Shown: positions 4,962-26,936 of the stretch, in pieces
Position numbering within the stretch: the stretch's first letter is position 1
Layout: each line of letters opens with the position of its first letter
Source: a virus
Lineage: Duplodnaviria; Caudoviricetes
Reading direction: 5' to 3' (one strand)
Length of the DNA: 26,936 bases
Virus record (IMG/VR): IMGVR_UViG_3300017988_000030
Span: 1-26,936 of that record
Position numbers and translations under genes: made by a program
Notes under the pieces: model-generated
Database searches by the model: none
Told to the model about the DNA's origin: nothing
Seen by the model: the letters and a program-made list of their open reading frames with translations, nothing else

Positions 4962-7280
4962 ATGAGTGATATGTCGCTAGGCCAACAAGGGGTGCTCCAG
5001 GTCATCCCGCCGGCACAGCTGGAACTCCAGTTGCAACAGCGGGCCAAGGATCAGGCCGCGGCTAATACGCCAGCCCAGCAAACACCTACGGCGCTGATTG
5101 GTTACATTAAGGGTCAGTTTGAGATTTTTCGCAACCACCGCAATACGAGCGCGGGATGGTCAGAGCGTTTGCTCGTTGCGTTGCGCACATTCAACGGGCA
5201 GTACGATGCGACCAAACTCAACGAAATTCGGCGTTTCGGGGGGTCCGAAGTCTATGCGCGCATCATCGCCCAAAAATGTCGCGCTGCTAGTTCACTCCTC
5301 CGCGATATTTATCTTGGTCAGGATCGCCCGTATGGTGTGAAGCCGCCGACCAATCCGGACGTTCCGCCGGAAATCATGGCGACGATCGAACAGCTACTCG
5401 CCGCCGAGCGCCAGCAGGTGCAGCAAACACAGGGTAAGCCGCCGGATGTGACTGATGAATGGCAGCGGCGCGAAGCGCTCGTGCAGTCCGCGGAGGACGC
5501 TGCCAAGAAAAAGGCGTCCGAGCAGGCGCGGATTAGCGAAGATAAGATCGAAGACATTTTGCGCGCCGGCGGTTTTTATCACGCCCTTGCTGAGTTTCTG
5601 GTCGACTTGCCGATTTTCCCGTTTGCTGTTATCAAGGGACCGGAAGTCAAGGTGATCCCGACTGTGTCATGGCCGCCGAATGGAGGCCAGCCCACAGTTA
5701 AACAGACGCCGAAACTCACCTGGGCCCGCGTATCGCCGTTCGATATTTGGTGGACACCCGGCGTCGCAGATATTAAGAACGCCAATGTCATCGAAAAACT
5801 TCGTATCACTCGGGCCGAGCTCAACGACCTTCTTGACCTCCCGGGGTACAATCAGGACGAAATCCGTGCGGTACTCGATGAGTACGGCCGCGGGGGTCTT
5901 TACGATAACTGGGATACTACGGATGCCGAGCGTGCGGTCCTCGAGAGCCGCGAGAATCCGGCTTGGAACCGTTCTGCACTGTTGAGCATGATGGCGTTCA
6001 ATGGGAATGTCCAAGGTCGCCTGCTTCAAGATTATGGTTTGGCCGTTCCGGATGAATTGCGAGATTATTACATTCAGGCATGGTGCATCGGCGGGCATGT
6101 CATTAAGGCTCAGTTGTCGCCGAGCCCGCGTCAGCGCCATCCCTACTACATTACGAGCTTTGAGAAGGTGCCGGGCACGCCGCTGGGTAATGGCCTCACC
6201 GATCTTCTCGTCGACCTTCAGGAGAGTGCAAATGCTACGTTACGGGCGCTGATCAATAATTTATCAATTAGTTCGGGTCCGCAGGTTGTGGTTAATGATG
6301 ATCGACTGAGTCCCGATGAAACCGGAGAGGATCTGTACCCATGGAAGCGGTGGCATGTTCGGAACGACCCCGTGTCAAACAACGCCCAGCAACCGATCAG
6401 CTTTTTCCAGCCGCAAGCCGTAGCTCAACAGCTGATCCAAGTGTTTCAGGAGTTTGTCTCGATTGCGGACGATGTATCGGCTATCCCCAAGTATATTGGG
6501 GGGCAAGCTGGTGCCGGCGGTGCTGGTCGGACCGCGTCCGGCCTAGCAATGCTGATGGGCAATGCTTCAAAAATTCTTCAAACCGTTTCGGCGAATATTG
6601 ATCGAGACGTGATCGAGGAAGTATTGATGAACCTCACGGATATGATCCTCCTCACGGATACTACGGGTCTACTTACCGGTGAGGAAAAGATTAGCGTTCA
6701 AGGTGTCAGTGTCGCGGTCCAGCGCGAGACGCTGCGACAACGCCAGATTGAATACCTGCAGGCCACGAACAATCCGACCGACATGCACATTATCGGGATC
6801 AAGGGCCGCGGCGCCGTGCTGCGCTCGGTCACCCGGGATATCGGTGTCGACGGTGACGAGGTTGTTCCGCCTGAACAGGTGCTCGAGCAGATGGACGCAC
6901 AGCAGAAACAGCAGCAAGCCAAACAGGCAGAGGAAGGTCCGCTGCAGCAGCGCATTCAGGAGGGTGTCAATAAGGGCGTTGGCATGGGCGTGCAGCGGAT
7001 CACGACGGAGCTCACCGCTGGCGTTCTCGCTCCGGAATTCCAGATGCCCGAAGGACCGCCCGCGCACATTGGCACGCCGGAAGGCGCGCCGGGTGGCCCG
7101 ACCACGAACAACTCGGAAATGGACTTGGGCCCTGGTGGTGATCAGGCGCGGCGCGCTGCCGTTTCGCAGGGTAGCCAGCCTAGTCAGATTGCGAGCCATG
7201 GGCTTGGACCGCAGACTGCCAATTTGGTAGGAAACCAACCTGGACCCGGAGCTAACCCCGTGCACCCTGGACCTGGATAA
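4962..7280 (+). CDS. Portal protein (podovirus type)
   Basis: 772 aa; motifs VSPFDIWW, PLGNGLTDLL, SSGPQVVVNDDRL, GRTASGLAMLMGNA; Gln/Pro/Gly-rich C-terminal tail; position at the head of the morphogenesis operon. Confidence 0.88.
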   Translation: MSDMSLGQQGVLQVIPPAQLELQLQQRAKDQAAANTPAQQTPTALIGYIKGQFEIFRNHRNTSAGWSERLLVALRTFNGQYDATKLNEIRRFGGSEVYARIIAQKCRAASSLLRDIYLGQDRPYGVKPPTNPDVPPEIMATIEQLLAAERQQVQQTQGKPPDVTDEWQRREALVQSAEDAAKKKASEQARISEDKIEDILRAGGFYHALAEFLVDLPIFPFAVIKGPEVKVIPTVSWPPNGGQPTVKQTPKLTWARVSPFDIWWTPGVADIKNANVIEKLRITRAELNDLLDLPGYNQDEIRAVLDEYGRGGLYDNWDTTDAERAVLESRENPAWNRSALLSMMAFNGNVQGRLLQDYGLAVPDELRDYYIQAWCIGGHVIKAQLSPSPRQRHPYYITSFEKVPGTPLGNGLTDLLVDLQESANATLRALINNLSISSGPQVVVNDDRLSPDETGEDLYPWKRWHVRNDPVSNNAQQPISFFQPQAVAQQLIQVFQEFVSIADDVSAIPKYIGGQAGAGGAGRTASGLAMLMGNASKILQTVSANIDRDVIEEVLMNLTDMILLTDTTGLLTGEEKISVQGVSVAVQRETLRQRQIEYLQATNNPTDMHIIGIKGRGAVLRSVTRDIGVDGDEVVPPEQVLEQMDAQQKQQQAKQAEEGPLQQRIQEGVNKGVGMGVQRITTELTAGVLAPEFQMPEGPPAHIGTPEGAPGGPTTNNSEMDLGPGGDQARRAAVSQGSQPSQIASHGLGPQTANLVGNQPGPGANPVHPGPG

Positions 7281-8093
7281 ATGTCGTATCACTTTATCAG
7301 CGGTCTACCGCGATCAGGCTCAACCTTGCTCGCCGCCCTCTTCTGTCAGAACCCCGCTTTCCATGCTGGTATCATTTCGCCGATGGGCCCAATGACGTCA
7401 GCGCTTCGTAGCGCTATGAGCCCGAAGCAAGAGACACATGTTTTCGTTGACGACGTGAAGCGTGGCCGCGTGCTCGAGGCCTTGTTTGATGCATTCTACG
7501 AAGACAATCTGCAGAAGGTGGTCTTTGATACGAACCGCCGTTGGTGTGCTGACATTGCAATGCTTGGCCGCCTGTTTCCGAAATCGCGCGTGATCGCGTG
7601 CGTGCGTCAGCCCGCGCACGTTGTTGATAGTTTCGAGCGTCTTTTTCAGAAGCATCCGTACGCTGTGAGCACGATCACTAAATGCAAGACGGAGGGGACT
7701 GTCTACGATCGCGCGGCGACGTTGCTCGCTATAGACGGTGTCGTTGGGTACGCGTACAACGCGCTGCGGGAAGCATTCTACGGTGCTAATTCGCACCGTC
7801 TGATCATTCTTGAGTATGTCAATTTGGCAAAGGCGCCGAAGGAAACGATGGCGTGGTTGCACGAGTGCTTGGGTGAAGCGCCTTTCGATTACGACTTCGA
7901 TCATATCAAACAAATTCCTGAGGTCGAGTTGTTTGATCGCACGATTGGCACGCCGGGTCTGCACGCAGTTAAGGAAAAAGTTGTCTACACCGTTGAGAAT
8001 ATTGTCTTGCCGCCTGATATCGTGGCGCGTATGCCGCCGGTGTTTTGGCGGCCGCCACCTTCCGTTAAGAAAGACGAAACCAATTCTGGATAG
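7281..8093 (+). CDS. PAPS-dependent sulfotransferase, RaxST-like
   Basis: 5'-PSB loop ISGLPRSGSTLL, VFDTNRRW, 3'-PB motif CVRxxxxVVDSFERL, C-terminal PGLH..LPP..FW. Confidence 0.9.
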   Translation: MSYHFISGLPRSGSTLLAALFCQNPAFHAGIISPMGPMTSALRSAMSPKQETHVFVDDVKRGRVLEALFDAFYEDNLQKVVFDTNRRWCADIAMLGRLFPKSRVIACVRQPAHVVDSFERLFQKHPYAVSTITKCKTEGTVYDRAATLLAIDGVVGYAYNALREAFYGANSHRLIILEYVNLAKAPKETMAWLHECLGEAPFDYDFDHIKQIPEVELFDRTIGTPGLHAVKEKVVYTVENIVLPPDIVARMPPVFWRPPPSVKKDETNSG

Positions 8094-8119
8094 TGTCACG
8101 CTGAATTGAAGGACAGCCC

Positions 8120-8740
8120 ATGACTGCCGGCATTACCTCTGCCCGACAATACGATCGTAATCAGCGTGGTGTCATCCTCGCAGAGGTTGTCAATGCTCTT
8201 GCGAGCGGTCCTACCGGAACAAATACTGGACCGACAGGTCCGACGGGGCCAGTTACAGGTCCGACTGGCGCTGCCGGTGTTCCAGGTCCGACCGGTCCGA
8301 CCGGTCCGTTTGGTTTAGGTACGGGTGGTTTCGGGCCACTTGGGTACCAGGGCCCCACTGGTCCGCGCGGTGCTACAGGCTTCACTGGTTTCACTGGAAA
8401 TAGCGGGCCGCTGGGCGCACAAGGACCAACTGGTCTTGCGAACGGCGCGACTGGCCCGACTGGCCCGACTGGTCCTTCTGCTGGGCCGGCCGGCTATACC
8501 GGTTGGACAGGTCCGACAGGTCCGACAGGATACACTGGACCGACGGGTCCGACAGGTGGATATGGGCTTGTTGGTCCCACCGGGCCGACCGGGCCGACCG
8601 GAACCACGATTACGATTTTCATTCCGCCTACATCGACCCCTGGCATCACGGGCGCGGTGTGGTTCAATCAGAATGCGACCGGCTTGACCGGTGGCCAGCA
8701 ATGGTTGGCGCTTGTAGTGTCGAAGGGACCGGGGACTTAA
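8120..8740 (+). CDS. Collagen-like protein A (GPT-rich)
   Basis: Long interrupted G-X-T triplets; N-terminal YDxNQ..LxEVV motif; C-terminal FIPPTxxPGxxGAVWxN..LVVSxG motif. Confidence 0.9.
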
Positions 8741-8741
8741 T

Positions 8742-9350
8742 ATGGCCAGAGAATATGGTAACGATGGCCCTATCCCGGCCATCCTGAACATCGATGCGAA
8801 CCAGATCAGCCCTGTTCTTCAACAGGTTGTTGATGCATTGAACCAGGGCGTTACCGGCTATACAGGCCCCACTGGCCCGACTGGCGTTGGCAATTTGACG
8901 GGCCCTACCGGCCCGACCGGCACGTTGACCGGTTTCACTGGTCCAACAGGCGGCCAGCCGGGCCCGATCGGTCCTACTGGCCAGACGGGGATCACCGGCC
9001 TTAGTGGCGCGATGGGCTTGCAGGGTGCGCCGGGCCAAACCGGCCCAGGTGGTCCGACTGGCCCGATCGGTTTGGCGCCGTTAACGGGGATCACCGGCTC
9101 AACAGGTCCGACCGGCCCGCAGGGGAAAAATACTGGCCCGACCGGTTCGACCGGTGTGACAGGTCTTACCGGGCTCACCGGTGTTTATGGCGCGACGGGG
9201 CCTTATGGTCCGACCGGTGCCACGGGTCCGACCGGTCCGACCGGTGTGAACTTTCGCAATTTTTTCCCGCCGACTGCGAGCCCCGGGGTGACCGGTCAAG
9301 TTTGGAGTAATGCGGGCGTGCTACAAGTTTCGCTTGGACCTGGGACGTAA
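8742..9350 (+). CDS. Collagen-like protein B (GPT-rich)
   Basis: G-X-T triplets; IDANQ..LQQVV N-motif; [27 protein letters not shown]-motif. Confidence 0.9.
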
Positions 9351-9353
9351 TCG

Positions 9354-10277
9354 ATGGCCACGAACATTGAGAACCCGTTGCTGAGCCCGCCGGACACGTA
9401 CGATGACAACCAGATCCCGGTTGTGTTGTTCGAAGTTGTCGGCGTGATCAACAACAATCAGGCAACCGGCCCTGCCGGTCCCGCGGGCCCGAAAGGTCCG
9501 GGCATTGCTGGAACTGGGTCGAGCGGTCCGACCGGTCTGACAGGCGGCCAGTTTGTGCAATGGGTGACTGGCATCACCGGGACGACCGGCTTTACGGCAT
9601 CCAATGGGTATTTCGGTCCGACAGGACCGTGGGGCGGTTACACCGGCCCGACCGGTAACACTGGCTACACTGGCATCCAGGGCACCGGGGGCGCGACTGG
9701 TCCAACGGGACCATCCGGTATTACCGGTAACACCGGGCCGACTGGCACTGCGGGACCATCCACTTTCCCGGGCCCGACCGGTCCAAGCTTTGGCGTCGGC
9801 ACCGGTTTGACAGGTGTCACCGGGTCAGCCGGTCCTGCTGGAGCACAAGGCCCCGGTGGTCCGTCAGTCAGCGGTACGGGCAGTCCGTATTTCCAAGGTG
9901 TCCTGCCGAGCGGTGCAACCGGTGGTGTAACAGGCCCGACTGGTCCGACTGGTCCGACCGGCACCCTGCAGTACAATTTCTACGCAATCGGTGCTGGTAC
10001 CGGTGTGACGGGTCCGTATGGCGGCTATACCGGTTCTGCCGGTGGCGCACCTGGGTTCGGCTACCCGAGCGGCTATCAAGGTCAGACGGGTCAATCTGGC
10101 TACGCGCTGACAGCCTACACTCAGGTGGGTGGTCCGATTGGTCCGATCGGTCCGGTGCATAATACGATCTTCACACCGCCGACGGTGGATCCGCAGATCC
10201 CGGGCGCCGTGTGGTGGAACCCGCTCTACGGTAACACGGGCCTCTTCGTATCGCCCGGCTTCGTGAATGCGGGCTAA
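9354..10277 (+). CDS. Collagen-like protein C
   Basis: Highly interrupted G-X-T triplets; YDDNQ..LFEVV N-motif; [24 protein letters not shown]-motif. Confidence 0.9.
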
Positions 10278-10279
10278 GC

Positions 10280-10331
10280 TTGACAGATGATAGTCCGGTG
10301 GTGTACCTCCAGGGGATCCATTCCCCTGGAG
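10280..10331 (+). promoter_or_regulatory. Putative promoter plus perfect 10-bp hairpin covering the SD of the glycosyltransferase gene
   Basis: TTGACA 10280-10285, N18, TACCTC 10304-10309. Inverted repeat CTCCAGGGGA (10307-10316) / TCCCCTGGAG (10322-10331) contains GGAG. Confidence 0.55.
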
Positions 10332-10341
10332 CATTCCCCCA

Positions 10342-12336
10342 ATGCGCCTCTGCCTGAATTCCATCGTGAAAAATGAAAGCGCGCGCATCCTCCGGATGCT
10401 TGAAAGTGTCGCCCCCCATATTTCTTGCTACGTGATCGCCGATACCGGGAGCACCGACGGCACTCCGGATATGATTAAAAAGTTTTTCGAAGCCGCGCAT
10501 ATCCCTGGGGAGCTTGTTCACTGCAAGTTTGAGGACTTCTCCCAGGCGCGCAATGTCGCTTTGTTTGCTGCGCAGAAGAGCAATCTTGCGTGGGACTATG
10601 CGATGCTCTGTGACGCAGATATGGAGTTTAAGGTCTACGACGAGAAGTGGATTGAGTTTCTAAAAGACGCGCCGGCGTACGACATGTATCAGGTCGCTGG
10701 CACGCTGCATTACCAGAACCGGCGTTTTGTGAAGCGCGGGGAGCACAACGGGTACCGCGGTGTGACGCATGAATATCTGGACGTCGCCACCGGCGGCTGC
10801 GTGCCGCAAGAGAAGGCGTTCTTCCTTGACTATGCGGACGGCGCCAACCGGCCTGACAAATTCAAACGTGATATCAGGCTGCTTAAGAAGGGTCTTGAGG
10901 ACGAGCCCACAAACGAGCGCTACATGTACTACCTTGCCCAATCGTATCGCGATGCCGGGAAGGCGGATAAGGCGGTTAAATGGTATCAGCGGCGCATCGC
11001 CGCCGGCGGTTGGGACGAGGAAGTTTGGAGCGCGATGTACTGTCTCGCGCATGCGCTTAAAGACCTGGGCGATGAAGCTGGATTTATACGTAAGATGCTG
11101 GACGCGTATAATTATCGGCCGAGCCGGGCCGAGCCGCTTTATGATCTTGCGCACTGGTACCGCGAACGCGGCGAGAACGCTACGGGCTTATTGTTCGCTG
11201 AAACCGGTATTCAGATCCCGACGTCGAAAGACGCTCTGTTTGTCAACGATTTTGTCTACACCGCGGGGTGTCTGGAAGAGTACGCCATCATGGCGTTCTA
11301 TGTTCCTCACAAGCGCACGGCGGGCTACAAAGTCAACAACATGCTCAGTTTGAAGCGGATGGCCTATACGGGTTCTCGGGAGCTCGCGCGCGTAAACATG
11401 TATCACTATTTCGTGCCGCTGAAAGACCTTTGCAAATCGTTCACTTGGAAGCCGCTCGCCTTCATCCCGCCGAAAGACTACGTGGCGATGAACCCGTCGA
11501 TCGCGGCTAATCCGACCACCGGTCAGTTGCACGTTGTCGTGCGGAACGTGAATTATCGCATCGACGACCAGGGGCGATATTTAATCCGTGCCACCGATGG
11601 AACGAGCAACGGGACAAACCCGATCCATACGCGCAACTTTTTGGCTATATTGGACGAGAATTTAGAGATTGTTCCGGATAGCATTAGTGAAATTAGACCG
11701 CCGGTTGACTTGCCGAAGCCGTTGTTTGATCTGGTTATCGGTTTTGAAGATTGCCGGTTATACACGGTTGACGGTGCTTTTTGGGTGTCGGCAACCATGC
11801 GCGAGCTCACTCCGGAAGGTTACTGTGAAATTGTGCGCGCGCGGATAAATCATTTGCCGCCTGTGCAGGTCTTCGACGAAATGACCCGGATGAAGCGCCG
11901 CGGTCACGAGAAGAATTGGATGCCGGTCGCCGACGGTCAGCACCATTTCATGTATCGCTGTGACGAACTTGTGGATGGTACCGGTGAGAGCCTTATCAAG
12001 CACGACGCTGTTATTGACGTCGGTGCTCTTGCTGGCGGGTCGCAGCTGATCCCGATGGCTGATGGTTGGCTTGCCGTTGTGCACGAGGCAACGCTTATCC
12101 CTGGTCAACAGACGCGGTTCTATTCGCACCGGTTCGTTGCCTTTGATAAGAGTTTCGTACTCAAGAAGGTCACGGCGCCATTCTATCTGCACGAGAAGGG
12201 GATCGAGTATGTCTCAGGGCTCGCTCTTTCTAGTGACAAGACAAAGCTGATCCTGTCTTACGGCTTTAAAGATTGTGAGGCGCGCATTGCGACGGTGGAC
12301 GTGAAAGAGTTGGAGACGTTCCTGTGGGCAAGCTGA
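10342..12336 (+). CDS. Multidomain glycosyltransferase: GT2 (GT-A) + TPR + C-terminal GH130/GT91-like beta-propeller
   Basis: LCLNSIVKNE, IADTGSTDGT, DFSQARN, DxD in CDAD, GVTHE; TPR helices (YYLAQSYRD, RAEPLYDLA); propeller-type motifs MNPSI, GFEDCRL, EKNWMP, YSHRF, IEYVSGL, SYG..D. Confidence 0.85.
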   Translation: MRLCLNSIVKNESARILRMLESVAPHISCYVIADTGSTDGTPDMIKKFFEAAHIPGELVHCKFEDFSQARNVALFAAQKSNLAWDYAMLCDADMEFKVYDEKWIEFLKDAPAYDMYQVAGTLHYQNRRFVKRGEHNGYRGVTHEYLDVATGGCVPQEKAFFLDYADGANRPDKFKRDIRLLKKGLEDEPTNERYMYYLAQSYRDAGKADKAVKWYQRRIAAGGWDEEVWSAMYCLAHALKDLGDEAGFIRKMLDAYNYRPSRAEPLYDLAHWYRERGENATGLLFAETGIQIPTSKDALFVNDFVYTAGCLEEYAIMAFYVPHKRTAGYKVNNMLSLKRMAYTGSRELARVNMYHYFVPLKDLCKSFTWKPLAFIPPKDYVAMNPSIAANPTTGQLHVVVRNVNYRIDDQGRYLIRATDGTSNGTNPIHTRNFLAILDENLEIVPDSISEIRPPVDLPKPLFDLVIGFEDCRLYTVDGAFWVSATMRELTPEGYCEIVRARINHLPPVQVFDEMTRMKRRGHEKNWMPVADGQHHFMYRCDELVDGTGESLIKHDAVIDVGALAGGSQLIPMADGWLAVVHEATLIPGQQTRFYSHRFVAFDKSFVLKKVTAPFYLHEKGIEYVSGLALSSDKTKLILSYGFKDCEARIATVDVKELETFLWAS

Positions 12337-13001
12337 CAACGAAAGTCGTCACCGGTTACGTGCGTCTCGAGAACCACACGCGCAAGCCGGAAGAGTATAA
12401 AGCGCTGGGGGAACGGCTGAGTGACGCGCTTGGTGATCATCCGCTGGAGGTCTTCTTCCATCGCAACCTTCGCGACCTCTGGCTGACGCAGTGGATTGAG
12501 CGCTTGCCCCCTATGAAGCCCCCGCTAAGCTGGAGCCAGGGCGATAACCCGCTGAAGAACACTCTCGAGTATCACTGTGTGCAGCACCAGAAGATTGCGT
12601 GGTTGGCGAAGGCTGCCGATATGGATAGCTCGATTGACACGTTTATTTGGATGGATTATGGCATTTTCTCCCAGCCCGGGGTAAACGCAGAAGTCATTCG
12701 GGATTTCTTGTCTAGGATCCGAAAGAACGACTTCGCGTTTCCCGGGTGCTGGCCAGAGGATCCTGACGTCTGGGATGATTATCCGTGTTGGCGCTTTTGT
12801 GGTTCGCTGTTGATAGTGCCGCAGAAGGAAATGCGTCGGCTGGTAGAGTGTTTTTTGGCGTTGACCCGGCTCTACATTCGCACGATGGGGAAGGTGACGT
12901 GGGAAGTGAACACGCTCGCGCGAGTCGAGCCGTTTCTGAAAAAGACCAATTTTCGCTGGTATGAGGCTGACCACAATGCCACTCAGTTTACGAGGTACTG
13001 A
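12324..13001 (+). CDS. HtrL/YibB (WlaTC)-like putative glycosyltransferase
   Basis: GTG start with GGAG; VVTGY, QHQKIAWL, FIWMDYGIF, WRFCGSLL, WEVNTLA. Confidence 0.6.
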   Translation: MGKLTTKVVTGYVRLENHTRKPEEYKALGERLSDALGDHPLEVFFHRNLRDLWLTQWIERLPPMKPPLSWSQGDNPLKNTLEYHCVQHQKIAWLAKAADMDSSIDTFIWMDYGIFSQPGVNAEVIRDFLSRIRKNDFAFPGCWPEDPDVWDDYPCWRFCGSLLIVPQKEMRRLVECFLALTRLYIRTMGKVTWEVNTLARVEPFLKKTNFRWYEADHNATQFTRY

Positions 13002-13003
13002 GA

Positions 13004-14020
13004 ATGTCCAAGAGGATCTTGATCACCGGTGTCGGCGGTTCAATTGGTTGCCATGTCTTGCGGCATGTTCTGAAGCACACGGATTGGCATGTTATCGGCT
13101 TAGACAGCTTCCGGCACAAAGGGCTGACGGATCGCGTGCAGCGCGTAACCTACAAGCACCGAGAGACTTTGTCCCGATTGACAGTGTATACCCACGACCT
13201 CACCGCCCCTATCTCGTCGTTGTTGGAAAGAAAGATCGGGAAGATTGACTACATCATCAATCTGGCGTCTATCTCGGACGTCGACCGCTCAATCGATGAA
13301 CCGGGCTACGTGATCACGAATAACGTGGAGCTCATGGTCAATGTTTTGGATTACGCGAGACGCGTACGACCAACTACTTTCCTCCAAGTTTCGACTGACG
13401 AAGTCTATGGGCCAACTGACGGCCGTACGGCGCACAAAGAGTGGGATCCGATCGTCCCGTCGAACGCCTACTCGGCATCGAAAGCCTGCCAGGAAGCCAT
13501 CGCGATCGCGTACTGGCGCAGCTACGGCGTGCCGCTGATCATCGTTAATCTGATGAACAATTTCGGTGAAATGCAGTCGCCGTCGAAGTTCCCCGCGATG
13601 GTGCAGCGGAGGGTGCGAGCAAACGAGAGTATCGGTATCCATAGGTTTGAAGATGGCTACGGTTCCCGCTTCTACATTCATTCCCGTAACGCCGCGGACG
13701 CTATGTGGTTTTTGCTTCGCCAGTGTCGACCACATTTACATAAACCAGGGACTGTTGATCGACCTAGTCGATATAACATTGTTGGGGACGAGCAGATCAA
13801 TAACCTCACGATGGCATACACAATTGCCGCTGCCGTCGGTAAAGACCTGAAATGGTATGACGTTGACTGCGCTGAGAACCGGCCGGGTCATGACGCGCAC
13901 TACGGGCTTGACGGTACGAAACTTAAAGAAGCTGGCTGGACGTCGCCATGCACGTTTGAACAATCGATGAAAGAGACGGTGACGTGGTACGAGAGGAACC
14001 CCGAGTGGCTGGACCTATAA
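13004..14020 (+). CDS. NDP-sugar 4,6-dehydratase (dTDP-glucose 4,6-dehydratase RmlB/RfbB-like)
   Basis: GxxGxxG (TGVGGSIG), STDEVYG, YSASK, RPGHDAHY, TVTWY. Confidence 0.88.
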   Translation: MSKRILITGVGGSIGCHVLRHVLKHTDWHVIGLDSFRHKGLTDRVQRVTYKHRETLSRLTVYTHDLTAPISSLLERKIGKIDYIINLASISDVDRSIDEPGYVITNNVELMVNVLDYARRVRPTTFLQVSTDEVYGPTDGRTAHKEWDPIVPSNAYSASKACQEAIAIAYWRSYGVPLIIVNLMNNFGEMQSPSKFPAMVQRRVRANESIGIHRFEDGYGSRFYIHSRNAADAMWFLLRQCRPHLHKPGTVDRPSRYNIVGDEQINNLTMAYTIAAAVGKDLKWYDVDCAENRPGHDAHYGLDGTKLKEAGWTSPCTFEQSMKETVTWYERNPEWLDL

Positions 14021-14631
14021 TCTTTGTCCTCACGTATCCGCCGGACTTGGAGAATGGCCGCATTAATGCGGTTCGCGCTACGTGGTTAGACACATGGTGC
14101 GATATGATTGCTTACCGGTTTGCGTTTGATAACACGCACGTTGCCACGCGGGGGGATGAACTTGTGCTTGACGCGCCGACTGGTTTGTTGAACACTTCAT
14201 TCAAGACACAGAGGGCTGCGCAATGGGCTCTCAAGCAAGGATACGACCATGCATTCTTCGTCCCGACCGACTGCTACGTCGCGGTCCCCCTCTTACTTGC
14301 GTCCGGGTATGGGGATCACGACTATACGGGCTTCCACTCTTACGATGAACATCATATCGGTGGGGGTTCAGGTTACTGGCTCAGCCGAAGCGCTCTTCAA
14401 GTTGTTGCAACTTATGTACCCTACCCCGATTACGAAGACCGATGGGTTGGAAGCGCCTGCCGAGACGCCGGTATCCCCGCGGTTCACGACGCCCGATACC
14501 ACTCGTGGGACCACGCTAAGCCCAGCCGCCCTCCAGTCACTAAACACCTTTCTCGAGACACTGGGATTTACGACCCCATGTGGATGATGTTCGTCCACGA
14601 AACATTCCTGGCAACTGGTGATTTGACATGA
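14005..14631 (+). CDS. GT31 (galactosyltransferase/Fringe)-like glycosyltransferase
   Basis: RINAVRATW, KT..AAQWA...YD, GGGSGYWLSRSAL, EDRWVG. The usual DDD position reads PTD. SD GAGAGGA precedes GTG 14005 (track start 13984). Confidence 0.65.
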   Translation: MAGPIIFVLTYPPDLENGRINAVRATWLDTWCDMIAYRFAFDNTHVATRGDELVLDAPTGLLNTSFKTQRAAQWALKQGYDHAFFVPTDCYVAVPLLLASGYGDHDYTGFHSYDEHHIGGGSGYWLSRSALQVVATYVPYPDYEDRWVGSACRDAGIPAVHDARYHSWDHAKPSRPPVTKHLSRDTGIYDPMWMMFVHETFLATGDLT

Positions 14632-15197
14632 CCCCACTTTGCGAGCTCTCCAGAAAGTACGGAACGGACAAGGGCGGCGAGCACATTCCCTACGGCGATC
14701 CCAATCACTGCTGTCACAACTATACGCCGATATACTACGACCTCTTCAAGGCTCGACGCGACGATACCCTAACTCTTCTCGAGATTGGCGTGAGCGAAGG
14801 TAAGAGTATTCACATGTGGCGAGAGTTCTTCCCTCTCGCCGCGATCTATGGTTGGGATCTTCGCATCGATCGGTTTGAGGGTGCGCCGCCTCCCAGCGTC
14901 CATCTGCGCTGTGTTGACCAGAGCAACGCGGACAGTTTGTACGAGGCGCTGATGGAAATTGGTAATCCGCGCTTCGACATTATCATCGATGACGGTTCGC
15001 ATATCTACGAGCATCAAGTGACAGCCCTTGGCGTCCTTCTGCCGTTCTTGAAACCGGACGGCATTTACGTCGTTGAGGATCACACGGAGCCGCAGCGCAT
15101 GATCCCCGACAGTATCTTGCCGACCGGCTGGACTAACACTGTCCACACTGACACAGACTGGCGTAATGTTTTGCAGGTTATCCGCCGTGCAAGCTGA
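14628..15197 (+). CDS. Class I SAM-dependent methyltransferase, sugar O-methyltransferase (MycE/TylE-like) type
   Basis: YGTDK, HNYTPIY, LLEIGVSEG, DIIIDDGSH, GIYVVED; ATGA overlap with the upstream gene. Confidence 0.82.
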   Translation: MTPLCELSRKYGTDKGGEHIPYGDPNHCCHNYTPIYYDLFKARRDDTLTLLEIGVSEGKSIHMWREFFPLAAIYGWDLRIDRFEGAPPPSVHLRCVDQSNADSLYEALMEIGNPRFDIIIDDGSHIYEHQVTALGVLLPFLKPDGIYVVEDHTEPQRMIPDSILPTGWTNTVHTDTDWRNVLQVIRRAS

Positions 15198-15936
15198 TAT
15201 CATTTCGATCAGTCACCCGCGCCCCACGCGTACGATCGATCCGCCGCTCGGCGGCGTTGCGCGCGAGTTTATGAACGGGTTGGACGATGATGGCGGGCTA
15301 TCGCAACGGTGGATCGATATGGTGCCGTTGGACTACATTTGGCGTCATATGAATGATCCCCTGCCGGACTGGCCGGTGCCGCCGATTATCGGTTTTCACG
15401 GCTACCGGAAGCACATTAATTTCCGCGATCCGATGGCAGAGCACGGGCATCAGCTGGCGCGCGGCTGGGACGCTGTCAGTCTGACGCAGTTCCTATCGTA
15501 CCAGGAGTGGCTGGCCAACGATTTGACGGGCACCATGCTTGATAAGATGCTGGACGGCTACGACGTGTTGACGGTTGAGCCGTTTGATTGCTCCTACAAT
15601 CAGAACATGCGCGAAGACTTTATTCGGTCGCGCTCGTTTAACGACTGGCAGACATTTGAGTATGCCATGAGACTGAAGGGCGAGTTTAACTTTGAGACGC
15701 CGTTCATCCGCCCGATGCACTTTGTCTGCCGGCGTCCTGTGTTCTGCCGCTGGATGCGGTTCTTCAACGAAATGAAAGTCCTGGAATTTGTTATCGACTC
15801 CGAAGATGCCGTCGCGCTGGATTATCCGCGCCGCGCCCTGGGGTACCTTGCCGAGCGTATGTGGTCGCTCTGGTTGGACGCATCTGGCCTGAAAATAAAG
15901 ACCCTCCCTCTCATGATCTGTTGGCACGTACCATGA
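15166..15936 (+). CDS. DUF4422-like putative glycosyltransferase
   Basis: IGFHGYRKH, MHFVCRRPVF..W, RALGYLAERMWSLWL. Alternative start GTG 15187. Confidence 0.65.
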   Translation: MFCRLSAVQADIISISHPRPTRTIDPPLGGVAREFMNGLDDDGGLSQRWIDMVPLDYIWRHMNDPLPDWPVPPIIGFHGYRKHINFRDPMAEHGHQLARGWDAVSLTQFLSYQEWLANDLTGTMLDKMLDGYDVLTVEPFDCSYNQNMREDFIRSRSFNDWQTFEYAMRLKGEFNFETPFIRPMHFVCRRPVFCRWMRFFNEMKVLEFVIDSEDAVALDYPRRALGYLAERMWSLWLDASGLKIKTLPLMICWHVP

Positions 15937-16685
15937 TTAACGGCTTAGCTGTTTCCACGGGTATGATGCATTTCACTCACGGGTCGCCGTTTGACCATGC
16001 AGTGATTGACGGCTTTTTGCGGCCTGATGTCCTGCTACGGATCCAGGAGGAATGGCCACAAGACGACGACCCGCGCTGGATCACGTACCACAACGCCCTG
16101 GAAGACAAGAAGACGTGCAACAAGTGGGACGCGTTCGGGCCCTTCACCTATCAGTTCTTTTCGAAGATGTGCAGCCTGGACGTGACGCGATATTTCAGCG
16201 CATGCGTCGGCGTTGACCTTGTGCCCGACTACGGACTGCACGGTGGTGGCCTTCACCAGCATGGTGAAGGCGGCAAGAACGGCGCGCACCTGGACTACAG
16301 CATCCACCCGAAGATGGGGCTGCAGCGGAAGTTGAACATCATCCTCTATATCGCTAAGCCGGGTTTAGGAGGGCATTTTGGCTTGTGGGCCGATCCGGAC
16401 AAGCTAGTCAAGGAAGTCGAGCCGCGGGTGAACCGCGCCGTCGTCTTCGACACGACGCAAAACTCCTGGCACGGGTTGAGCCGGACCGTTCACACGAATG
16501 GAATGAATTATCGAAAGTCGCTTGCCATGTACTACCTGTGCGAGCCGCCACCGGATGCCCCGCAGAACCGGCGTGTGCTGTTCGGTTTGACGCAAGAGCA
16601 GAAGAACGACGCGATGCTTCAGGAGTTTGTGGCGAAGCGCTGCGGTGTGGATACAGCGAAGGAGGTCTATCGTGATCGATTATAA
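15933..16685 (+). CDS. 2OG-Fe(II) oxygenase (prolyl 4-hydroxylase-like superfamily)
   Basis: PFDHAVIDGFL, GGGLH, HxD (HLD), LNIILY, distal His (SWHG), 2OG-binding RKS; ATGA overlap at 15933. Confidence 0.87.
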   Translation: MINGLAVSTGMMHFTHGSPFDHAVIDGFLRPDVLLRIQEEWPQDDDPRWITYHNALEDKKTCNKWDAFGPFTYQFFSKMCSLDVTRYFSACVGVDLVPDYGLHGGGLHQHGEGGKNGAHLDYSIHPKMGLQRKLNIILYIAKPGLGGHFGLWADPDKLVKEVEPRVNRAVVFDTTQNSWHGLSRTVHTNGMNYRKSLAMYYLCEPPPDAPQNRRVLFGLTQEQKNDAMLQEFVAKRCGVDTAKEVYRDRL

Positions 16686-17916
16686 GTGTCGCGGTTGCGG
16701 TTGTTCTCTGGTTCATGTCTTTGCAAACTTGGGTCGATCCCCCCCATCAAATGCATTTCGCACGCTGGAGCAGCTGGACGAACCAGAAATGACGCTCCCG
16801 TTGCGCGTCTTCGTGTGCAGGGAGTGCCAGCTTGTGCAGCTGCCGGCGTACGAGAAGCCGGAAAACATCTTCAATGAGTACGCTTATTTCTCCTCCTACT
16901 CGCCGACCTGGGTTGAGCATATGCGGCGTTATGCTGCGGCGATGACAGCGAAGCACCGGCTCGGTGCTCAGTCGCTCGTGCTCGACGTTGCAAGCAATGA
17001 TGGTTATCTCCTGAAGCACTTCAAGGAGTTCGGTGTTCCAGTGATGGGGGTTGATCCCGCGAAGAATGTTGCTGACATCGCTATCGCGGCCGGTATTCCG
17101 ACCTTTAAGGCCTTCTTTGGTGAGGCGCTGGCGAGGGACATGGTGGTTGGTCACGGTCGTGCTGACCTAATCAATGCAACCAACGTCCTGGCGCACGTTC
17201 CCGATATTCACGATTTTGTCGAGGGCTTTAGGATCATGTTGCAGCCTGCCGGCACCATCACCTTTGAATTCCCCCATGTGCTCAACCTTATACGCGAGTG
17301 TCAGCTAGACACTATTTATCACGAACACTACTCGTATTTATCGTTGCGAGCACTGGAACCGATTTTCAAGACACACGATTTGCGCGTGTACGATATTGAT
17401 CAGTTACCAACGCACGGCGGTTCGCTTCGGTTGCATGTCTGTCACGCGTACGATTACCATGCAGCAATCGTTGCGAACGATGAAGCCATTTATAATATTC
17501 AAGCTTTGGAAGTTGGTGCCGGGCTGCATGAGCTAGAGACATATACGAGCTTCGCTAGCGAGCCGCAGCGCGTCAAAGTGGACTTCCTTGATTTTTTGAT
17601 CAGACAGAAAAAGCGCGGTAAGATGATTGTCGGGTATGGTGCGCCGGCGAAGGCAACGACGCTACTCAATTACTGCGGCGTCGGGCCAGAGCTCATTTCA
17701 TACACGGTGGACGCAACACCGGCGAAACAATGGAAATACATTCCGGGTGTTCAAATTCCCATTTTTCCGGAAGAAGAGTTGGTCAAAGATCGGCCTGACT
17801 TCGTGGTGATTTTCCCCTGGAACTTGAAAGACCCGATCATGCAAAAGGCTAAGGTGATCCGGGAGTGGGGCGGTAAGTTCGTCACCGCGATCCCTAAGCT
17901 GCAGATCATCCCTTAA
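16672..17916 (+). CDS. NDP-hexose C-methyltransferase (Zn-binding N-terminus + class I MTase + C-methyltransferase C-terminal domain)
   Basis: CRGC...CREC zinc site, LDVASNDG, NVLAHVPD, IYHEHYSY, THGGSLR, GYGAPAK, FPWNL; SD AAGGAGGT before GTG 16672. Confidence 0.92.
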   Translation: MIDYKCRGCGCSLVHVFANLGRSPPSNAFRTLEQLDEPEMTLPLRVFVCRECQLVQLPAYEKPENIFNEYAYFSSYSPTWVEHMRRYAAAMTAKHRLGAQSLVLDVASNDGYLLKHFKEFGVPVMGVDPAKNVADIAIAAGIPTFKAFFGEALARDMVVGHGRADLINATNVLAHVPDIHDFVEGFRIMLQPAGTITFEFPHVLNLIRECQLDTIYHEHYSYLSLRALEPIFKTHDLRVYDIDQLPTHGGSLRLHVCHAYDYHAAIVANDEAIYNIQALEVGAGLHELETYTSFASEPQRVKVDFLDFLIRQKKRGKMIVGYGAPAKATTLLNYCGVGPELISYTVDATPAKQWKYIPGVQIPIFPEEELVKDRPDFVVIFPWNLKDPIMQKAKVIREWGGKFVTAIPKLQIIP

Positions 17917-17945
17917 CTGTTCCTTCACCTGCATGCGGTTACATG
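17913..17945 (+). promoter_or_regulatory. CtrA-like box plus -10 element ahead of the head-assembly genes
   Basis: TTAA-ctgttcc-TTCACC (17913-17929), TACATG at 17940-17945. Confidence 0.5.
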
Positions 17946-17980
17946 CTGGCGGGCATAGTCCCGTACGCAGGAGTTTTCCT

Positions 17981-18370
17981 ATGGCCAATTGGCAAAAGAA
18001 GGGCGTCTCTGGTGAGGCGGCCAATGTTGACGCCGGTAGCGGTTCAAAGCGCGATGGCGCCAAGGGCCGCGGTGCCGGTGGTCGCGCGCGAGGGCCGGAC
18101 GTTTCGACTACTGACGGCGGTTCTGGTCGCACCGATAGCGGTGCAGGCGCTTCCGCAACTGAGAAGACCCACAACGTAGAGTTCGCGAAGGGTGGTGACA
18201 CCCATATGTTTGGCGAGCAGGAGGCGAATAAGCAGCGCCCCGGTTACGCCGAGAAAGCGGACGCCCACGGCCCGGGTTCGAAGTTTGCGGAAGGTGGCAA
18301 GAATAAGATGTTCGGCTTTGCCGGCGCGTTGCCGGCGACAGCGGGCATTAGTGCCGCGCGAGAGTCCTAA
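17981..18370 (+). CDS. Low-complexity Gly/Ala/Lys-rich hypothetical protein
   Basis: SD AGGAG 17969-17973, ATG 17981; duplicated FAxGGxxxMFG motif. Confidence 0.75.
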   Translation: MANWQKKGVSGEAANVDAGSGSKRDGAKGRGAGGRARGPDVSTTDGGSGRTDSGAGASATEKTHNVEFAKGGDTHMFGEQEANKQRPGYAEKADAHGPGSKFAEGGKNKMFGFAGALPATAGISAARES

Positions 18371-18609
18371 TGGCAGCCCGGCTCTCTGTCGGGGTGCCCA
18401 TGAAGGGCTCCAAGACTACGCCGACGCCCAGCATGCGGCCTAGCTTCGTGCTCGGTTCCCGGCCGGCCAGCATGCGCACCGGGGCCGTTCCTACGCCCGG
18501 CGCGCGTATCAAGCCCGCGGCCGCGAGCACCACGCAGTATGGAAAGATGAACGGCCAGTCGAACCCGGCGAACGTCGCCGGCCAGTGGCCAGGAGCCGGC
18601 AATGTTTAA
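18370..18609 (+). CDS. Small basic Pro-rich hypothetical protein
   Basis: TAATG coupling to the upstream gene; overlaps the next start. Confidence 0.65.
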   Translation: MAARLSVGVPMKGSKTTPTPSMRPSFVLGSRPASMRTGAVPTPGARIKPAAASTTQYGKMNGQSNPANVAGQWPGAGNV

Positions 18610-18838
18610 GAAGCACATGGTTCCGCTGTCCAAGGGCGGTCAGACTGTCCAGCACGCCGGCAAGGGCTCCCAGCAAGCCCCCATGTCTGCGCGCAACAAC
18701 GTCACCCAGTCGGGCTCGAGCGCGCCCGGCGCTTCAATCGGGAATTATGCCAAAGCGACACCGATGGCGAATCCAACGCCTCCTGCCGCGCCAGATGGTG
18801 GTCTTGGAACGGGTGATTGGCCTGGGATAGGACAGTAA
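18602..18838 (+). CDS. Small Pro/Gly-rich hypothetical protein
   Basis: SD AGGAG upstream; ends WPGIGQ, resembling WPGAGNV of the preceding ORF. Confidence 0.7.
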   Translation: MFKKHMVPLSKGGQTVQHAGKGSQQAPMSARNNVTQSGSSAPGASIGNYAKATPMANPTPPAAPDGGLGTGDWPGIGQ

Positions 18839-18881
18839 ATGACTTCATACCGCTCTCCCCAAGCGGTTAATGAGGAATGAT

Positions 18882-19121
18882 ATGACCCCCGATCCAATCA
18901 AAGTCTACGCCTTGCGTTTGCGCAACGCCGACCCGGCGATATGGGACCAATTTCTCGCCGCGCTCGATGCCGACGCTTACGCGAATATGACTGGCCTCGT
19001 GACCGCGACGTCGTCAGAAATCCTTTCAAAACAAGGGCAAGTCCAGGCGTACACGCGCTGGTTACGGAAATTTAAGGAGTGTGATCGAGAACCGCCTCAA
19101 CAGAAGCCCTCGCCGGCTTAA
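18882..19121 (+). CDS. Small helical protein preceding the scaffold
   Basis: SD GAGGA 18872-18876, ATG 18882; helical with a QGQVQA motif; position typical of podovirus pre-scaffold genes. Confidence 0.7.
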   Translation: MTPDPIKVYALRLRNADPAIWDQFLAALDADAYANMTGLVTATSSEILSKQGQVQAYTRWLRKFKECDREPPQQKPSPA

Positions 19122-20248: not shown

Positions 20249-20289
20249 CCAGGGGGTTCATGTCGGGCCCCCGTGAATTGGGGGTCCAA

Positions 20290-21300
20290 ATGGGCATTCC
20301 GTCTGGTGCATTCCCCGGCGCAACCGCCGGCACTTCGCCTGCCATCTACCCGTCGGGTAGCTCTGGTAACGCTCTCCAGGCCACCGGGTTCATCCCGGAA
20401 ATCTGGTCGGGCAAGCTCGTGGAGAAGTTCTACGCGAGCACGGTCCTTGCTGCGATCAGCAACACGGACTATGAGGGTGAAATCAAAAACAAAGGCGATC
20501 GTGTCAAGATCCGCACGAAGCCGACTATCACCATCCACAACTACGACGCCGATGGCCTCTTGGGCCTCGACCGTCCGACTGGTGGAACGGTGGAACTCTA
20601 CATCGGGAACGGCAAATACTTCTCGCTGATCCTTGATGACGTCATGGAAGTTCAGAGCGATCTGAATATCCTCTCCATGTGGTCTGACGACGCTGCGCAG
20701 CAGCTGAAGATCGCGGTCGACACCGACGTGCTCTCGGGCATTGTCGGCCAGATGAACGCGTCCAACTTCGGTACCGCTGCCGGCGCGATCACCGGTTCGT
20801 TGAACCTCGGCGCCCAGGGCTCTGCTCTTGCCGTCGTGGGCCGCAACGCCGGTAGCGGCCAAGTGGAACTCCTGGACGTTCTCATGCGTATGGGCCAAGT
20901 GCTCGACGAACAGAACATCCCGGAAGTCGGTCGTTGGATTGTGATGCCTGCTTGGGCAGGCCGCATGATCAAACAGTCCGAACTCCGTCAGGCCTACCTG
21001 TCGGGCGATAGCGTGTCGATGCTGCGCAACGGCCGGCTTGGAATGATCGACCGGTTCACGGTCTACATTTCGAACCTGCTCCCGAACAACAGTTCGGACA
21101 GTGCGCAGTTCAACTCGGGCGAGTACCCGATCTTCGCCGGTCACGCTCACGGACTAACGTTCGCGAGCCAGATCAGCAAGGTTGAGACGCTTCGCTCCGA
21201 GCTCACCTTCGGCCAGATCCTGCGTGGATTGCAGGTGTACGGCTATCAGGTGGTGGACGGCCGCGCGCTCGTCCAAGCGCAAGTTACCCCGGCCTCGTAA
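20290..21300 (+). CDS. Major capsid protein (HK97 fold, P22-coat-like)
   Basis: FIPEIWSGKL, NTDYEGEI..GDRVKI, NGRLGMIDRFTVYISN, RGLQVYG; strongly biased C/G-ending codons; followed by a terminator. ATG 20290 preferred over 20260. Confidence 0.9.
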   Translation: MGIPSGAFPGATAGTSPAIYPSGSSGNALQATGFIPEIWSGKLVEKFYASTVLAAISNTDYEGEIKNKGDRVKIRTKPTITIHNYDADGLLGLDRPTGGTVELYIGNGKYFSLILDDVMEVQSDLNILSMWSDDAAQQLKIAVDTDVLSGIVGQMNASNFGTAAGAITGSLNLGAQGSALAVVGRNAGSGQVELLDVLMRMGQVLDEQNIPEVGRWIVMPAWAGRMIKQSELRQAYLSGDSVSMLRNGRLGMIDRFTVYISNLLPNNSSDSAQFNSGEYPIFAGHAHGLTFASQISKVETLRSELTFGQILRGLQVYGYQVVDGRALVQAQVTPAS

Positions 21301-22920: not shown

Positions 22921-23817
22921 ATGACTGTCTTCGTTCAAGGCCCCGCACCTGTCTTCGCGCGCCCTGTTGTTGTGCCCAGTCAATTGACGGGTCCAACCGG
23001 TCCCCTTGGTGGGCCTACTGGGCCGACAGGTCCAAGCGCGGCTACGGGGCCGACCGGACCAACTGGTTGGAGCGGACCGACCGGATATGGCGGGACTGGT
23101 CCGACAGGAAATCAAGGGAACACCGGCTACACTGGGCCCCCGGGTAATTCGATCACCGGCTATACGGGCCCGGCCGGCTTCGCTGTGAACACCGGCGCCA
23201 CCGGCCCGAGCGGTCCCACAGGACGCACCGGCCCAGCCGGCACGGCAACGAACACTGGCGCCACCGGTTATACTGGCCCGACTGGTTTCACCGGCCCTGC
23301 GGGGACGGCAACGAACACCGGCGCCACCGGGCCGACCGGCACATTGACTGGCCCGACGGGTGCCACCGGTGCAACTGGGCCAGCCGGTACGGCGACGAAT
23401 ACCGGCGCCACCGGTCCGACGGGAGCCGGTCTTGTCGGTATGACGTTCGGCGTTGGGCTGATTATCAACGGTTTCGGCACGACGCTGCCGACCGGGCCAG
23501 CCGGCGACGTTGTCATGCCGTTCAATGCGACGATTTCTCAGGTCACCTTAGTAGGTGGTCCAACTGGATACGCGTTAGTCGACATCTACAAGTGCGTCTT
23601 TTCAGTCTACGACAATGGCAACACGCATCCGGTTGTCGGGGACAGCATCACGGCGAACGATAAGCCGGTGTTGAATAACACGTACCGATATCAGGATAAT
23701 GCGCTCACCGGTTGGACCACTCAGATAAATGCCAATGACGTGTTGCGTTTCATCCTTCCTACAGGTGTCACCGGGATTGGGCAGCTGACCGCAGAACTCG
23801 CATGCACGAGGCGGTAA
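22921..23817 (+). CDS. Collagen-like tail fibre with C-terminal beta-sandwich head
   Basis: [12 protein letters not shown]-motif, GPT/GAT triplets with repeated [14 protein letters not shown]-domain ..VDIYK..DSIT..P..QD..LTGWTT..DVLRF. Confidence 0.85.
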
Positions 23818-24609: not shown

Positions 24610-25398
24610 ATGGCTGTGCCCGTTAGTATTCCTTCGCCAGTCTACGCTCGACCCGTTGTGGTCGTGGGCGCCAGCACGGGGCCTACGGGTCCGTCTGTTG
24701 GTCCGACGGGGACGACCGGTCCGACTGGGGCGACGAGCAATACTGGCCCTACTGGCAACACGGGCCCCACGGGTTATGGGCCGACCGGCCCGACCGGCAT
24801 TCCTGGTCTTACAGGCTTCACCGGTCCTCCTGGTAACTCGATCCAAGGCGCGACCGGTCCACAGGGCGCGGCTACAAACACAGGTGCTACTGGCCCTGCA
24901 GGACCGACCGGTGCGGGTGCTACGGGCCCGACCGGCCCTACAGGTTTTACGGGGTTCACTGGTCCCGGCGGTACGGCCACAAACACGGGTGCAACAGGAC
25001 CGTCTGGCCCCACGGGTGCGAGCGGTCCTGCCGGCGTTGCATCAAATACGGGTGCAACCGGACCGACTGGCCCGACTGGAGCAGGCAGCACAGGCCCAAC
25101 CGGATCTGCCGCCGGTGGTGGGTATACATCTGTGACCGGGACATCTAGCGGCACTGGCACAATTAATTTTGGCGGTCTTATCATGCAGTGGGGGCTTGGC
25201 CCGACTGGAGCCGGCACGCCAACAACGATCACGTTTCCAAAACCGTTCCCGACCGTTTGCATGCACGTTAGCATTACGATGGATGCATCGCCGTCCGGTG
25301 GGGACTCGCCATACGTCACCTTGGTGACAACAGTCAATTTCGTGATGAACAACGCAGGCAACACGAGCGGCTGCTACTGGTTCGCTATCGGGTATTAA
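24610..25398 (+). CDS. Collagen-like tail fibre with gp53-like C-terminal domain
   Basis: [12 protein letters not shown]-motif, GPT/GAT triplets, C-domain [24 protein letters not shown]. Confidence 0.87.
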
Positions 25399-25399
25399 C

Positions 25400-26936
<1,537 letters not shown>

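Follow-up and report, generated by a model that had tools for sequence, protein, structure and literature searches.

Organization of the Locus

The DNA analyzed here (the window) is a stretch of 26,936 nucleotides, IMG/VR record IMGVR_UViG_3300017988_000030, from a tailed phage that has not been cultured; this 26.9-kb fragment contains terminase, portal, putative scaffold, and capsid genes. Between the portal and capsid genes lies a candidate collagen-glycosylation cassette of twelve genes, comprising nine soluble enzymes and three collagens built of Gly-X-Thr triplets (Table 1). All twelve are on the + strand and abut or overlap one another, in agreement with the tight coupling described in an original prediction made from the sequence of the window. 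The nine enzymes counted there hold as genes, but correspond to ten predicted catalytic domains, since a 664-residue protein holds two and its C-terminal propeller had been overlooked. The earlier family labels agree with Pfam for the sulfotransferase, the family 2 glycosyltransferase with tetratricopeptide repeats (GT2-TPR), the dehydratase, both methyltransferases, DUF4422, and the oxygenase, but the GT31-like and HtrL-like proteins have no Pfam match of their own.

None of the cassette enzymes contains a transmembrane segment, and the collagens likewise lack hydrophobic segments. Scans for promoters and terminators gave counts expected by chance (6 versus 7.2 and 18 versus 17.0, respectively), so the operon structure is deduced from gene coupling. 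An 11-pair hairpin (21329-21356) lies 3′ of the major capsid gene.

Table 1. Coordinates of the cassette, its boundary genes, and the downstream collagen genes in the window
Feature	Position	Strand	Evidence and remarks
Portal, upstream boundary	4962..7280	+	PF23899 2.9e-8; phrog_332, phrog_1216
Sulfotransferase, 270 aa	7281..8093	+	Sulfotransfer_3 PF13469 8e-13; 3′-phosphoadenosine 5′-phosphosulfate (PAPS)-binding GLPRSGST motif
Collagen 1, 206 aa	8120..8740	+	Pfam Collagen over cut-off; 41 Gly-X-Y triplets, 24 Thr at Y
Collagen 2, 202 aa, paralog	8742..9350	+	Pfam Collagen over cut-off; 42 triplets, 26 Thr at Y
Collagen 3, 307 aa, paralog, more interrupted	9354..10277	+	Pfam Collagen under cut-off; 50 triplets, 22 Thr at Y
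Core enzyme, 664 aa, GT2+TPR (1-350) fused to predicted propeller (361-664)	10342..12336	+	Pfam GT2+TPR
HtrL/YibB-like putative glycosyltransferase, 225 aa	12324..13001	+	Weak PF09612 matches in some family members; atlas 0.97
Nucleoside diphosphate (NDP)-sugar 4,6-dehydratase-like short-chain dehydrogenase/reductase (SDR), 338 aa	13004..14020	+	PF01370 2.5e-45; TIGR01181 1.5e-56, below cut-off
GT31-like glycosyltransferase, 215 aa, start may be 14005	13984..14631	+	Atlas 0.98 Galactosyl_T/Fringe; 7q4i 5.6e-6
Sugar O-methyltransferase, MycE/TylE-like, 189 aa	14628..15197	+	Methyltransf_24 PF13578; 3ssm 5e-16
DUF4422 / GT111-like glycosyltransferase, WbbM N-terminal type, 256 aa	15166..15936	+	PF14393 over cut-off
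2-Oxoglutarate (2OG)-Fe(II) oxygenase, start probably near 15933	15861..16685	+	2OG-FeII_Oxy_3 PF13640 4.5e-12; HxD...H and RxS present
NDP-sugar C3-methyltransferase, TcaB9/mycarose type, start probably 16672	16627..17916	+	PF08484 3.8e-55 + PF08421
Putative scaffold	19148-20248		phrog_13678; scaffold name from position only
Major capsid protein, downstream boundary	20260..21300	+	Family matches
Collagen 4, Gly-X-Thr, likely further substrate	22921..23817	+	
Collagen 5, Gly-X-Thr + Gp53-like tail-fiber C-terminal domain	24610..25398	+	PF21882 1.5e-15
Collagen 6, podophage Gp77 fiber-tail adaptor fused to 96 triplets	25629..26936 (runs past window end)	+	PF23148 6.3e-8

Threonine-Rich Collagens

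The collagen character assigned earlier to collagens 1-3 is borne out by their Gly-X-Y runs, which in each gene are longer than in 1000 of 1000 composition-keeping shuffles. In these three proteins Thr occupies Y 72 times and X 6 times. Over the whole window, Thr is at Y in 145 of 246 triplets (59%; 62 of 96 in collagen 6), and the runs of each collagen carry at most one charged residue. In typical viral collagens, in contrast, Thr accounts for 8.9% and Lys/Arg for 38% of the Y positions (PMC3368898, table 4).

Collagens 1-3 are paralogs that share an N-terminal helix motif, D..LxxVVxxxN, and a C-terminal PPT..G.VW motif, both kept across relatives in 1-4 copies. They contain no Cys, which makes S-linkage of a sugar unlikely. 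Of four more collagens proposed elsewhere in the window, three are clear (beginning at 22921, 24610, and 25629, the last running to the window end); the fourth (1347-1652) is a 101-residue open reading frame (ORF) with only a short GPT stretch. The domains attached to collagens 5 and 6 indicate that these are probably tail fibers, and we infer from gene position only that collagens 1-3 are also on the virion.

The usual phage collagens are charge-stabilized, and E. coli EPclA is unglycosylated (PMC3368898), whereas (Gly-Pro-Thr)10 stays a random coil unless its Thr residues are galactosylated (PMC11923368). By analogy, a Thr-linked sugar would likely also stabilize the triple helix of the window's collagens, because their repeats carry hardly any charge and hardly any Pro at Y.

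Other genes stand near or resemble these collagens. Those at 23818-24609 and 25400-25642, among the downstream collagen genes, have no family match, and a 263-residue Thr/Ser-rich protein encoded there was not found in ten other genomes. In the relative G006, a 1707-residue frame (L263 15696 to L264 1807) encodes a very long collagen with a pectate-lyase-like head, in the manner of a collagen-stalked tailspike.

A Core Enzyme with Two Predicted Catalytic Domains

By profile, and by predicted fold over residues 1-273, the solved glycosyltransferases nearest to the GT2-TPR half of the core enzyme are SunS, ThuS, and GmaR, whose substrates are peptides or flagellin. This relationship supports a protein- or peptide-glycosylating type, as had been proposed for the initiating enzyme. 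The DxD and THE motif residues D34, D39, D91, D93, and T142-H143-E144 are invariant in 43/43 family members.

The C-terminal half (residues 361-664) is predicted to fold as a five-bladed β-propeller of the GH130/GT108 kind. It resembles GH130 mannoside phosphorylases and Leishmania MTP mannosyltransferases (PDB 9gph, 4kmi, and 6q4x) at 11-16% identity and, unlike them, is fused to a GT2-TPR domain. Matches to PF04041 are weak, occurring in 3 of 43 family members (best 7e-4). Residues N384, R401, E469-D470, R472, and E523-W526 are invariant; presumably they correspond to known catalytic residues. The sequence of the 664-residue protein thus leads us to predict an initiator and a possible extender in one chain.

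Coupling of Collagens and Glycosyltransferase among Related Phages

The association between collagens and the core glycosyltransferase (GT) was measured from two sides. Scanning with an alignment of collagen 2, and taking the best 80 of 106 loci with exclusion of the window's own record and of loci with <3 kb downstream, we found the GT 43-2446 bases downstream of the collagen in 49/50 loci, the exception being the weakest match. On the capsid side, 98 distinct capsids divided into 40 GT-positive, 19 GT-negative, and 39 undecided. Where at least 4 kb lay beyond the capsid gene, with the window included and some positives found via the GT scan, at least ten Gly-X-Thr triplets occurred beyond that gene in 23/23 GT-positive and 0/10 GT-negative cases.

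Whole genomes give the same picture. Five complete GT-positive genomes hold 103-200 Gly-X-Thr triplets each; the complete GT-negative genomes G003 and RHph_TM3_14A hold zero. Four partial GT-negative genomes have none in the stretch covered, which leaves out the last 713 bases of G004; those bases encode part of a collagen, with 7 Thr among 26 triplets. One collagen that does occur among the GT-negative relatives has 56 triplets and is charged (22 charges) and poor in Thr (7), and three such relatives have the Gp77-like adaptor alone (94-98 residues).

We assign a probability of about 0.75 to a model in which the cassette O-glycosylates the phage's own Gly-X-Thr collagen fibers. The model draws on genes, families, predicted folds, and co-occurrence.

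Related Enzymes in Bacteria and Other Viruses

Homologs of the core enzyme also occur in bacteria, many of them in Mesorhizobium and Bradyrhizobium. Among the best 80 of 240 bacterial loci, 57 have at least ten Gly-X-Thr triplets near the enzyme (54/66 where at least 2.5 kb of upstream sequence is present), and 0/80 have phage head genes. Co-occurrence of enzyme and collagen, which the original prediction had singled out for checking, is thus found in both directions among phages and again in bacteria. In five rhizobial genomes (6.9-9.3 Mb), 29 of the 31 strongest collagen matches fall within ∼17 kb of the enzyme. The bacterial homologs have MycE-like methyltransferases, HtrL, and extra GT domains fused or adjacent to them. 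In two annotated rhizobial loci, further GT domains are fused to the enzyme, and a long Gly-X-Thr collagen lies divergent to it with an ABC transporter next in line; the L144 collagen bears a DUF4347 domain, with an HlyD gene after it.

Four of these loci in Mesorhizobium and Bradyrhizobium (L144 268-17318, L162, L180, and L204) combine HlyD and an ABC transporter with a divergent multi-domain glycosyltransferase cluster, and their DUF4347 protein contains 200-670 almost pure Gly-X-Thr triplets. From its sequence, this type of locus looks like a type I-secreted glycosylated collagen adhesin, for which we found no paper in the open-licence literature.

The phage enzymes group together (support 98) in a fast tree, beside 60 bacterial ones. 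Among 25 other viral loci outside the clade, nine have Gly-X-Thr collagens; Tunturi_5 and DSL-LC02 combine GT2-TPR with such collagens. In Synechococcus phage DSL-LC02 (L298 5177-11621), a propeller gene also stands alone, divergent to fiber genes and a Thr-rich collagen, with methyltransferases after it.

Variable Content of the Interval

We compared 35 GT-bearing intervals that are whole from the portal to the small head genes, two of them near-copies and one frameshifted. Collagens are present in 30, HtrL in 28, O-methyltransferase in 15, dehydratase in 12, sulfotransferase in 8, DUF4422 in 8, C-methyltransferase in 6, GT31 in 6, and oxygenase in 4; 27 have a methyltransferase of any kind. 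The intervals show 18 distinct enzyme sets; UDP-galactopyranose mutase, a reductase, or other methyltransferases occur in some of them, and the set in the window is among the fullest. The cassette is therefore not the fixed nine-enzyme system first supposed but a fixed core (GT, collagens, and HtrL) with a swappable tail.

The interval varies in other respects. Lysin genes (muramidase, amidase, and GH25) are inserted between portal and scaffold in L055/L060, L064, L068, L069, and L099. Endonuclease VII-type genes recur within the cassette (L112 9627-10001 plus 19 ORFs like it). Another cassette family (seven loci; L009 5151-5822, L003 6323-7015) has only a faint GT-like match. Between cassette and scaffold, four small Gly/Pro/Ala-rich genes (window 17933-19121) keep their order across the clade and match no family.

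This variability bears on a division of roles in which GT2-TPR puts a short glycan on the collagens, and the accessory genes are hot-spot passengers acting elsewhere, for example on host surface polysaccharide during lytic infection. The interval does acquire genes of the HNH/endonuclease VII type, and some relatives also have lysins there; the solved relative of the GT111-like enzyme is an O-antigen polymerase; and glycosyltransferases beside the tail-fiber genes of SAR11 myophages have been read as host O-chain modifiers (PMC7029224). Against this, the accessory genes belong nearly all to sugar-transfer or tailoring families across the 18 sets and are coupled directly behind the GT. They are absent from six GT-negative genomes, the cassette encodes no membrane protein, and the bacterial forms of this enzyme have MycE-like methyltransferases, HtrL, and extra GT domains fused to them or next to them. 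We consider such a division unlikely.

Accessory and Tailoring Enzymes

Three accessory proteins are candidate glycosyltransferases. For the HtrL-like protein, 10 of 47 family members match PF09612, weakly and below cut-off (best 4.9e-5), and the window's own protein does not; hhalign to a clear HtrL protein gives 6% and the predicted model has a pLDDT of 96.6. The family profile of the GT31-like protein matches the core-1 β-1,3-galactosyltransferase C1GalT1 (7q4i). Its DxD position reads mostly P-T-D, with the last Asp alone invariant (9/9). The GT111-like protein shows whole-domain homology, its family profile matches WbbM (6u4b, 2.6e-17), and the DUF4422/GT111 assignment is further based on PMC12269835. 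UDP-galactopyranose mutase occurs in 2/35 intervals, one of them with DUF4422, and not in the window.

The dehydratase-like SDR keeps the GxxGxxG, TDEVYG, and YxxxK motifs. The C3-methyltransferase is homologous over its full length, with zinc, S-adenosylmethionine, and C-terminal domains and an intact zinc motif, and its best structure matches are 5t64 (5e-72), 4rv9 (6e-69), and TcaB9 (1e-66). The phage had been suggested to build its own sugar; these two enzymes agree with that, but the cassette contains no sugar-activating enzyme. C-methylation had been placed on the finished product, whereas C-methyltransferases of the TcaB9/MtmC type, the top structures here, act on the nucleotide sugar before transfer. 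The MycE/TylE-like O-methyltransferase matches demethylmacrocin O-methyltransferase at 9.5e-13.

PDB matches of the sulfotransferase are to protein-tyrosine sulfotransferases only (E ∼2e-4). Collagens that occur with a sulfotransferase contain more Tyr than those without (57 per 961 versus 38 per 1563 triplets, p 0.008), but most are from close kin of the window, and given this kinship we treat the difference as a lead only. In the sulfotransferase-bearing relative G006, a PAPS-reductase-family gene lies directly 3′ of the capsid gene (L264 6110-6898). The 2OG-Fe(II) oxygenase has no meaningful match in the PDB.

Source Phage and Lifestyle

The closest cultured phage is Rhizobium phage RHph_TM3_14A (MN988472), with 67% capsid identity and head genes in the same order; its 60.9-kb genome has neither the cassette nor Gly-X-Thr collagen. 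Complete relatives have genomes of 63-70 kb. In G006, 39 of 60 long ORFs were scanned, and these include DNA polymerase, helicase, primase, an internal virion protein, and fibers, with no match to a tail tube, sheath, or tape measure. This gene content, together with the podophage Gp77 adaptor, suggests a podophage. The cultured relative and the enzyme tree point to a putative alphaproteobacterial host; no prophage of the clade was found among the 80 bacterial loci.

At 1630-3159, 3072-4178, and 4304-5047, the − strand of the window carries the terminase genes, opposite to the portal, with a phosphoesterase/exonuclease-like gene (phrog_284) between them that is present in some relatives only. 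Several relatives instead encode the large terminase on the + strand. A small Gly/His-rich protein with a signal-like N terminus is encoded at 1066-1332.

Serotype conversion or superinfection exclusion would have the cassette modify host lipopolysaccharide (LPS) or exopolysaccharide, with the collagens as unrelated neighbors. Such a role for glycosyltransferases is known in temperate phages (PMC12619734), and families of O-antigen type are present here. Neither tyrosine integrase nor serine resolvase, however, was matched in the five complete cassette-bearing genomes (0/5; controls matched in 14/14 and 12/14). The cassette has no membrane-embedded transferase or flippase, and the coupling to collagens holds in both directions and in bacteria, so we regard this explanation as very improbable.

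Lower still is the probability of DNA hypermodification, an activity of which phage glycosyltransferases and 2OG oxygenases are capable (cited in PMC12619734). A thymidylate-synthase/hydroxymethylase family gene was matched in 0/5 complete genomes (control 10/14); the Tet_JBP profile was also matched in 0/5, although its control was likewise without a match. The cassette belongs to the late block, at a distance from the replication genes, and GT2 enzymes of the TPR type are protein-directed. DNA or host LPS as the target was named in the original prediction as what would speak against collagen modification; the hydroxymethylase, integrase, and membrane-segment results give no support to modification of DNA or to lysogenic modification of LPS.

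Proposed Pathway and Points against It

The pathway we propose would operate in the cytoplasm of the infected cell. First, the GT2-TPR half would add a sugar from a host nucleotide sugar to Thr of Gly-X-Thr, a step that is the best founded because of its family and gene coupling. Second, the propeller and the HtrL-like, GT31-like, and GT111-like enzymes may extend or branch the chain. Third, judging from enzyme families, a branched 6-deoxy sugar donor would be made from a host NDP-hexose by the dehydratase and C3-methyltransferase ahead of transfer, and the MycE-like enzyme would O-methylate a sugar once attached. Fourth, and weakest, the sulfotransferase and oxygenase might decorate the glycan or the fiber, which is a guess. 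The sugar would likely stabilize the helix, and the variable outer chain would tune shielding or adhesion.

Several observations weigh against this pathway. On a capsid tree of 59 rows, the GT/collagen split is one change (support 98) and counts once as evidence. The accessory enzymes resemble O-antigen and antibiotic-sugar enzymes, so their link to a fiber glycan is drawn from gene position. Collagens 1-3 match no known virion-anchoring domain, and in 5/35 intervals the GT occurs without cassette collagens, although four of these have collagens 3′ of the capsid gene. Such collagens are also missing from 23/80 bacterial loci, many of them short, and from 16/25 viral loci outside the clade that have GT2-TPR. 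In addition, Pro at Y is no commoner in collagens that occur with the oxygenase than in those without (14/431 versus 62/2093, p 0.41), leaving a role of this enzyme as collagen prolyl hydroxylase unsupported.

Erwinia phage Y3 is a further such case: its head-block GT2-TPR (L297 12046-13218) has 0 Gly-X-Thr triplets in 25 kb and may act on another virion protein. Applied to the window, the acceptor would be another virion protein, such as the capsid, or the collagens would be glycosylated but not part of the virion. The position of the cassette between portal and capsid genes would suit this, and mycobacteriophages do glycosylate the capsid as well as the tail tube (according to citations in PMC12363180 and PMC12619734). 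Collagens 5 and 6, however, carry tail-fiber and fiber-adaptor domains, and for the sister enzymes in bacteria there is no capsid that could serve as acceptor. There is, in our estimate, only a slight chance that the acceptor lies elsewhere, and glycosylation of the phage's own collagen fibers is preferred.

A broader version of this preferred model is tentative and, on balance, doubtful. It envisages a glyco-serotype locus in a podophage clade, with collagens that fold only when glycosylated, a two-headed GT2-TPR/propeller initiator in common with the rhizobial type I-secreted adhesin system, and outer methylated or sulfated sugars that are reshuffled in the manner of O-antigens, possibly mimicking the glycan of the host adhesin.

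Relation to Known Systems and Implications

The closest parallel is Clostridioides difficile SgtA, a GT with TPR encoded beside bclA3, which adds O-linked N-acetylglucosamine to Thr of GPT peptides in vitro (PMC7157674). Both systems place a GT-A and TPR enzyme beside a GPT-repeat collagen, with the Thr acceptor shown there and predicted here; the likeness is drawn from architecture and gene position. SgtA, in contrast, has 358 residues and no propeller, and its substrate is a membrane-anchored spore exosporium protein rather than phage fibers. Extending enzymes were not found in that system (PMC7157674), whereas candidate extenders and tailors are clustered here. The phage system thus works like SgtA/BclA3 and is not a member of that spore system.

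Likeness to SunS, ThuS, and Listeria GmaR (PDB 7msp, 7msk, and 22ao) extends over residues 1-273, and the C-terminal domain differs. Mycobacteriophages, too, are tailed phages that use their own glycosyltransferases on virion proteins (Freeman et al., 2023, as cited in PMC12363180 and PMC12619734), but the acceptors there are capsid and tail-tube subunits, as opposed to predicted collagen fibers with tens to hundreds of sites, and the present cassette is variable and includes methyl-, sulfo-, and oxygenase genes. Mimivirus L230 and the giant-virus glycogene clusters share virus-encoded collagen modification and clustered, clade-specific genes for sugar synthesis, transfer, and methylation; in contrast, L230 glucosylates hydroxylysine, and these are eukaryotic viruses with other enzyme families (PMC9614988). 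We found no description of the present phage system in the open-licence literature (PMC and bioRxiv).

Virion glycosylation in tailed phages is documented for the capsid and tail tube of mycobacteriophages; a clade-wide collagen-fiber system would, if true, be a second kind, and its hypervariable tailoring cassette a new axis of phage diversity. The system makes it possible to test whether Thr glycosylation folds microbial Gly-X-Thr collagens, a question left open in PMC11923368, and which enzymes extend such glycans, which were not found for BclA3 (PMC7157674). Both questions could be addressed with small soluble proteins. The findings also hint at what HtrL-like, GT111-like, and propeller domains may do, and draw attention to a locus of Mesorhizobium and Bradyrhizobium that may encode a glycosylated collagen adhesin.

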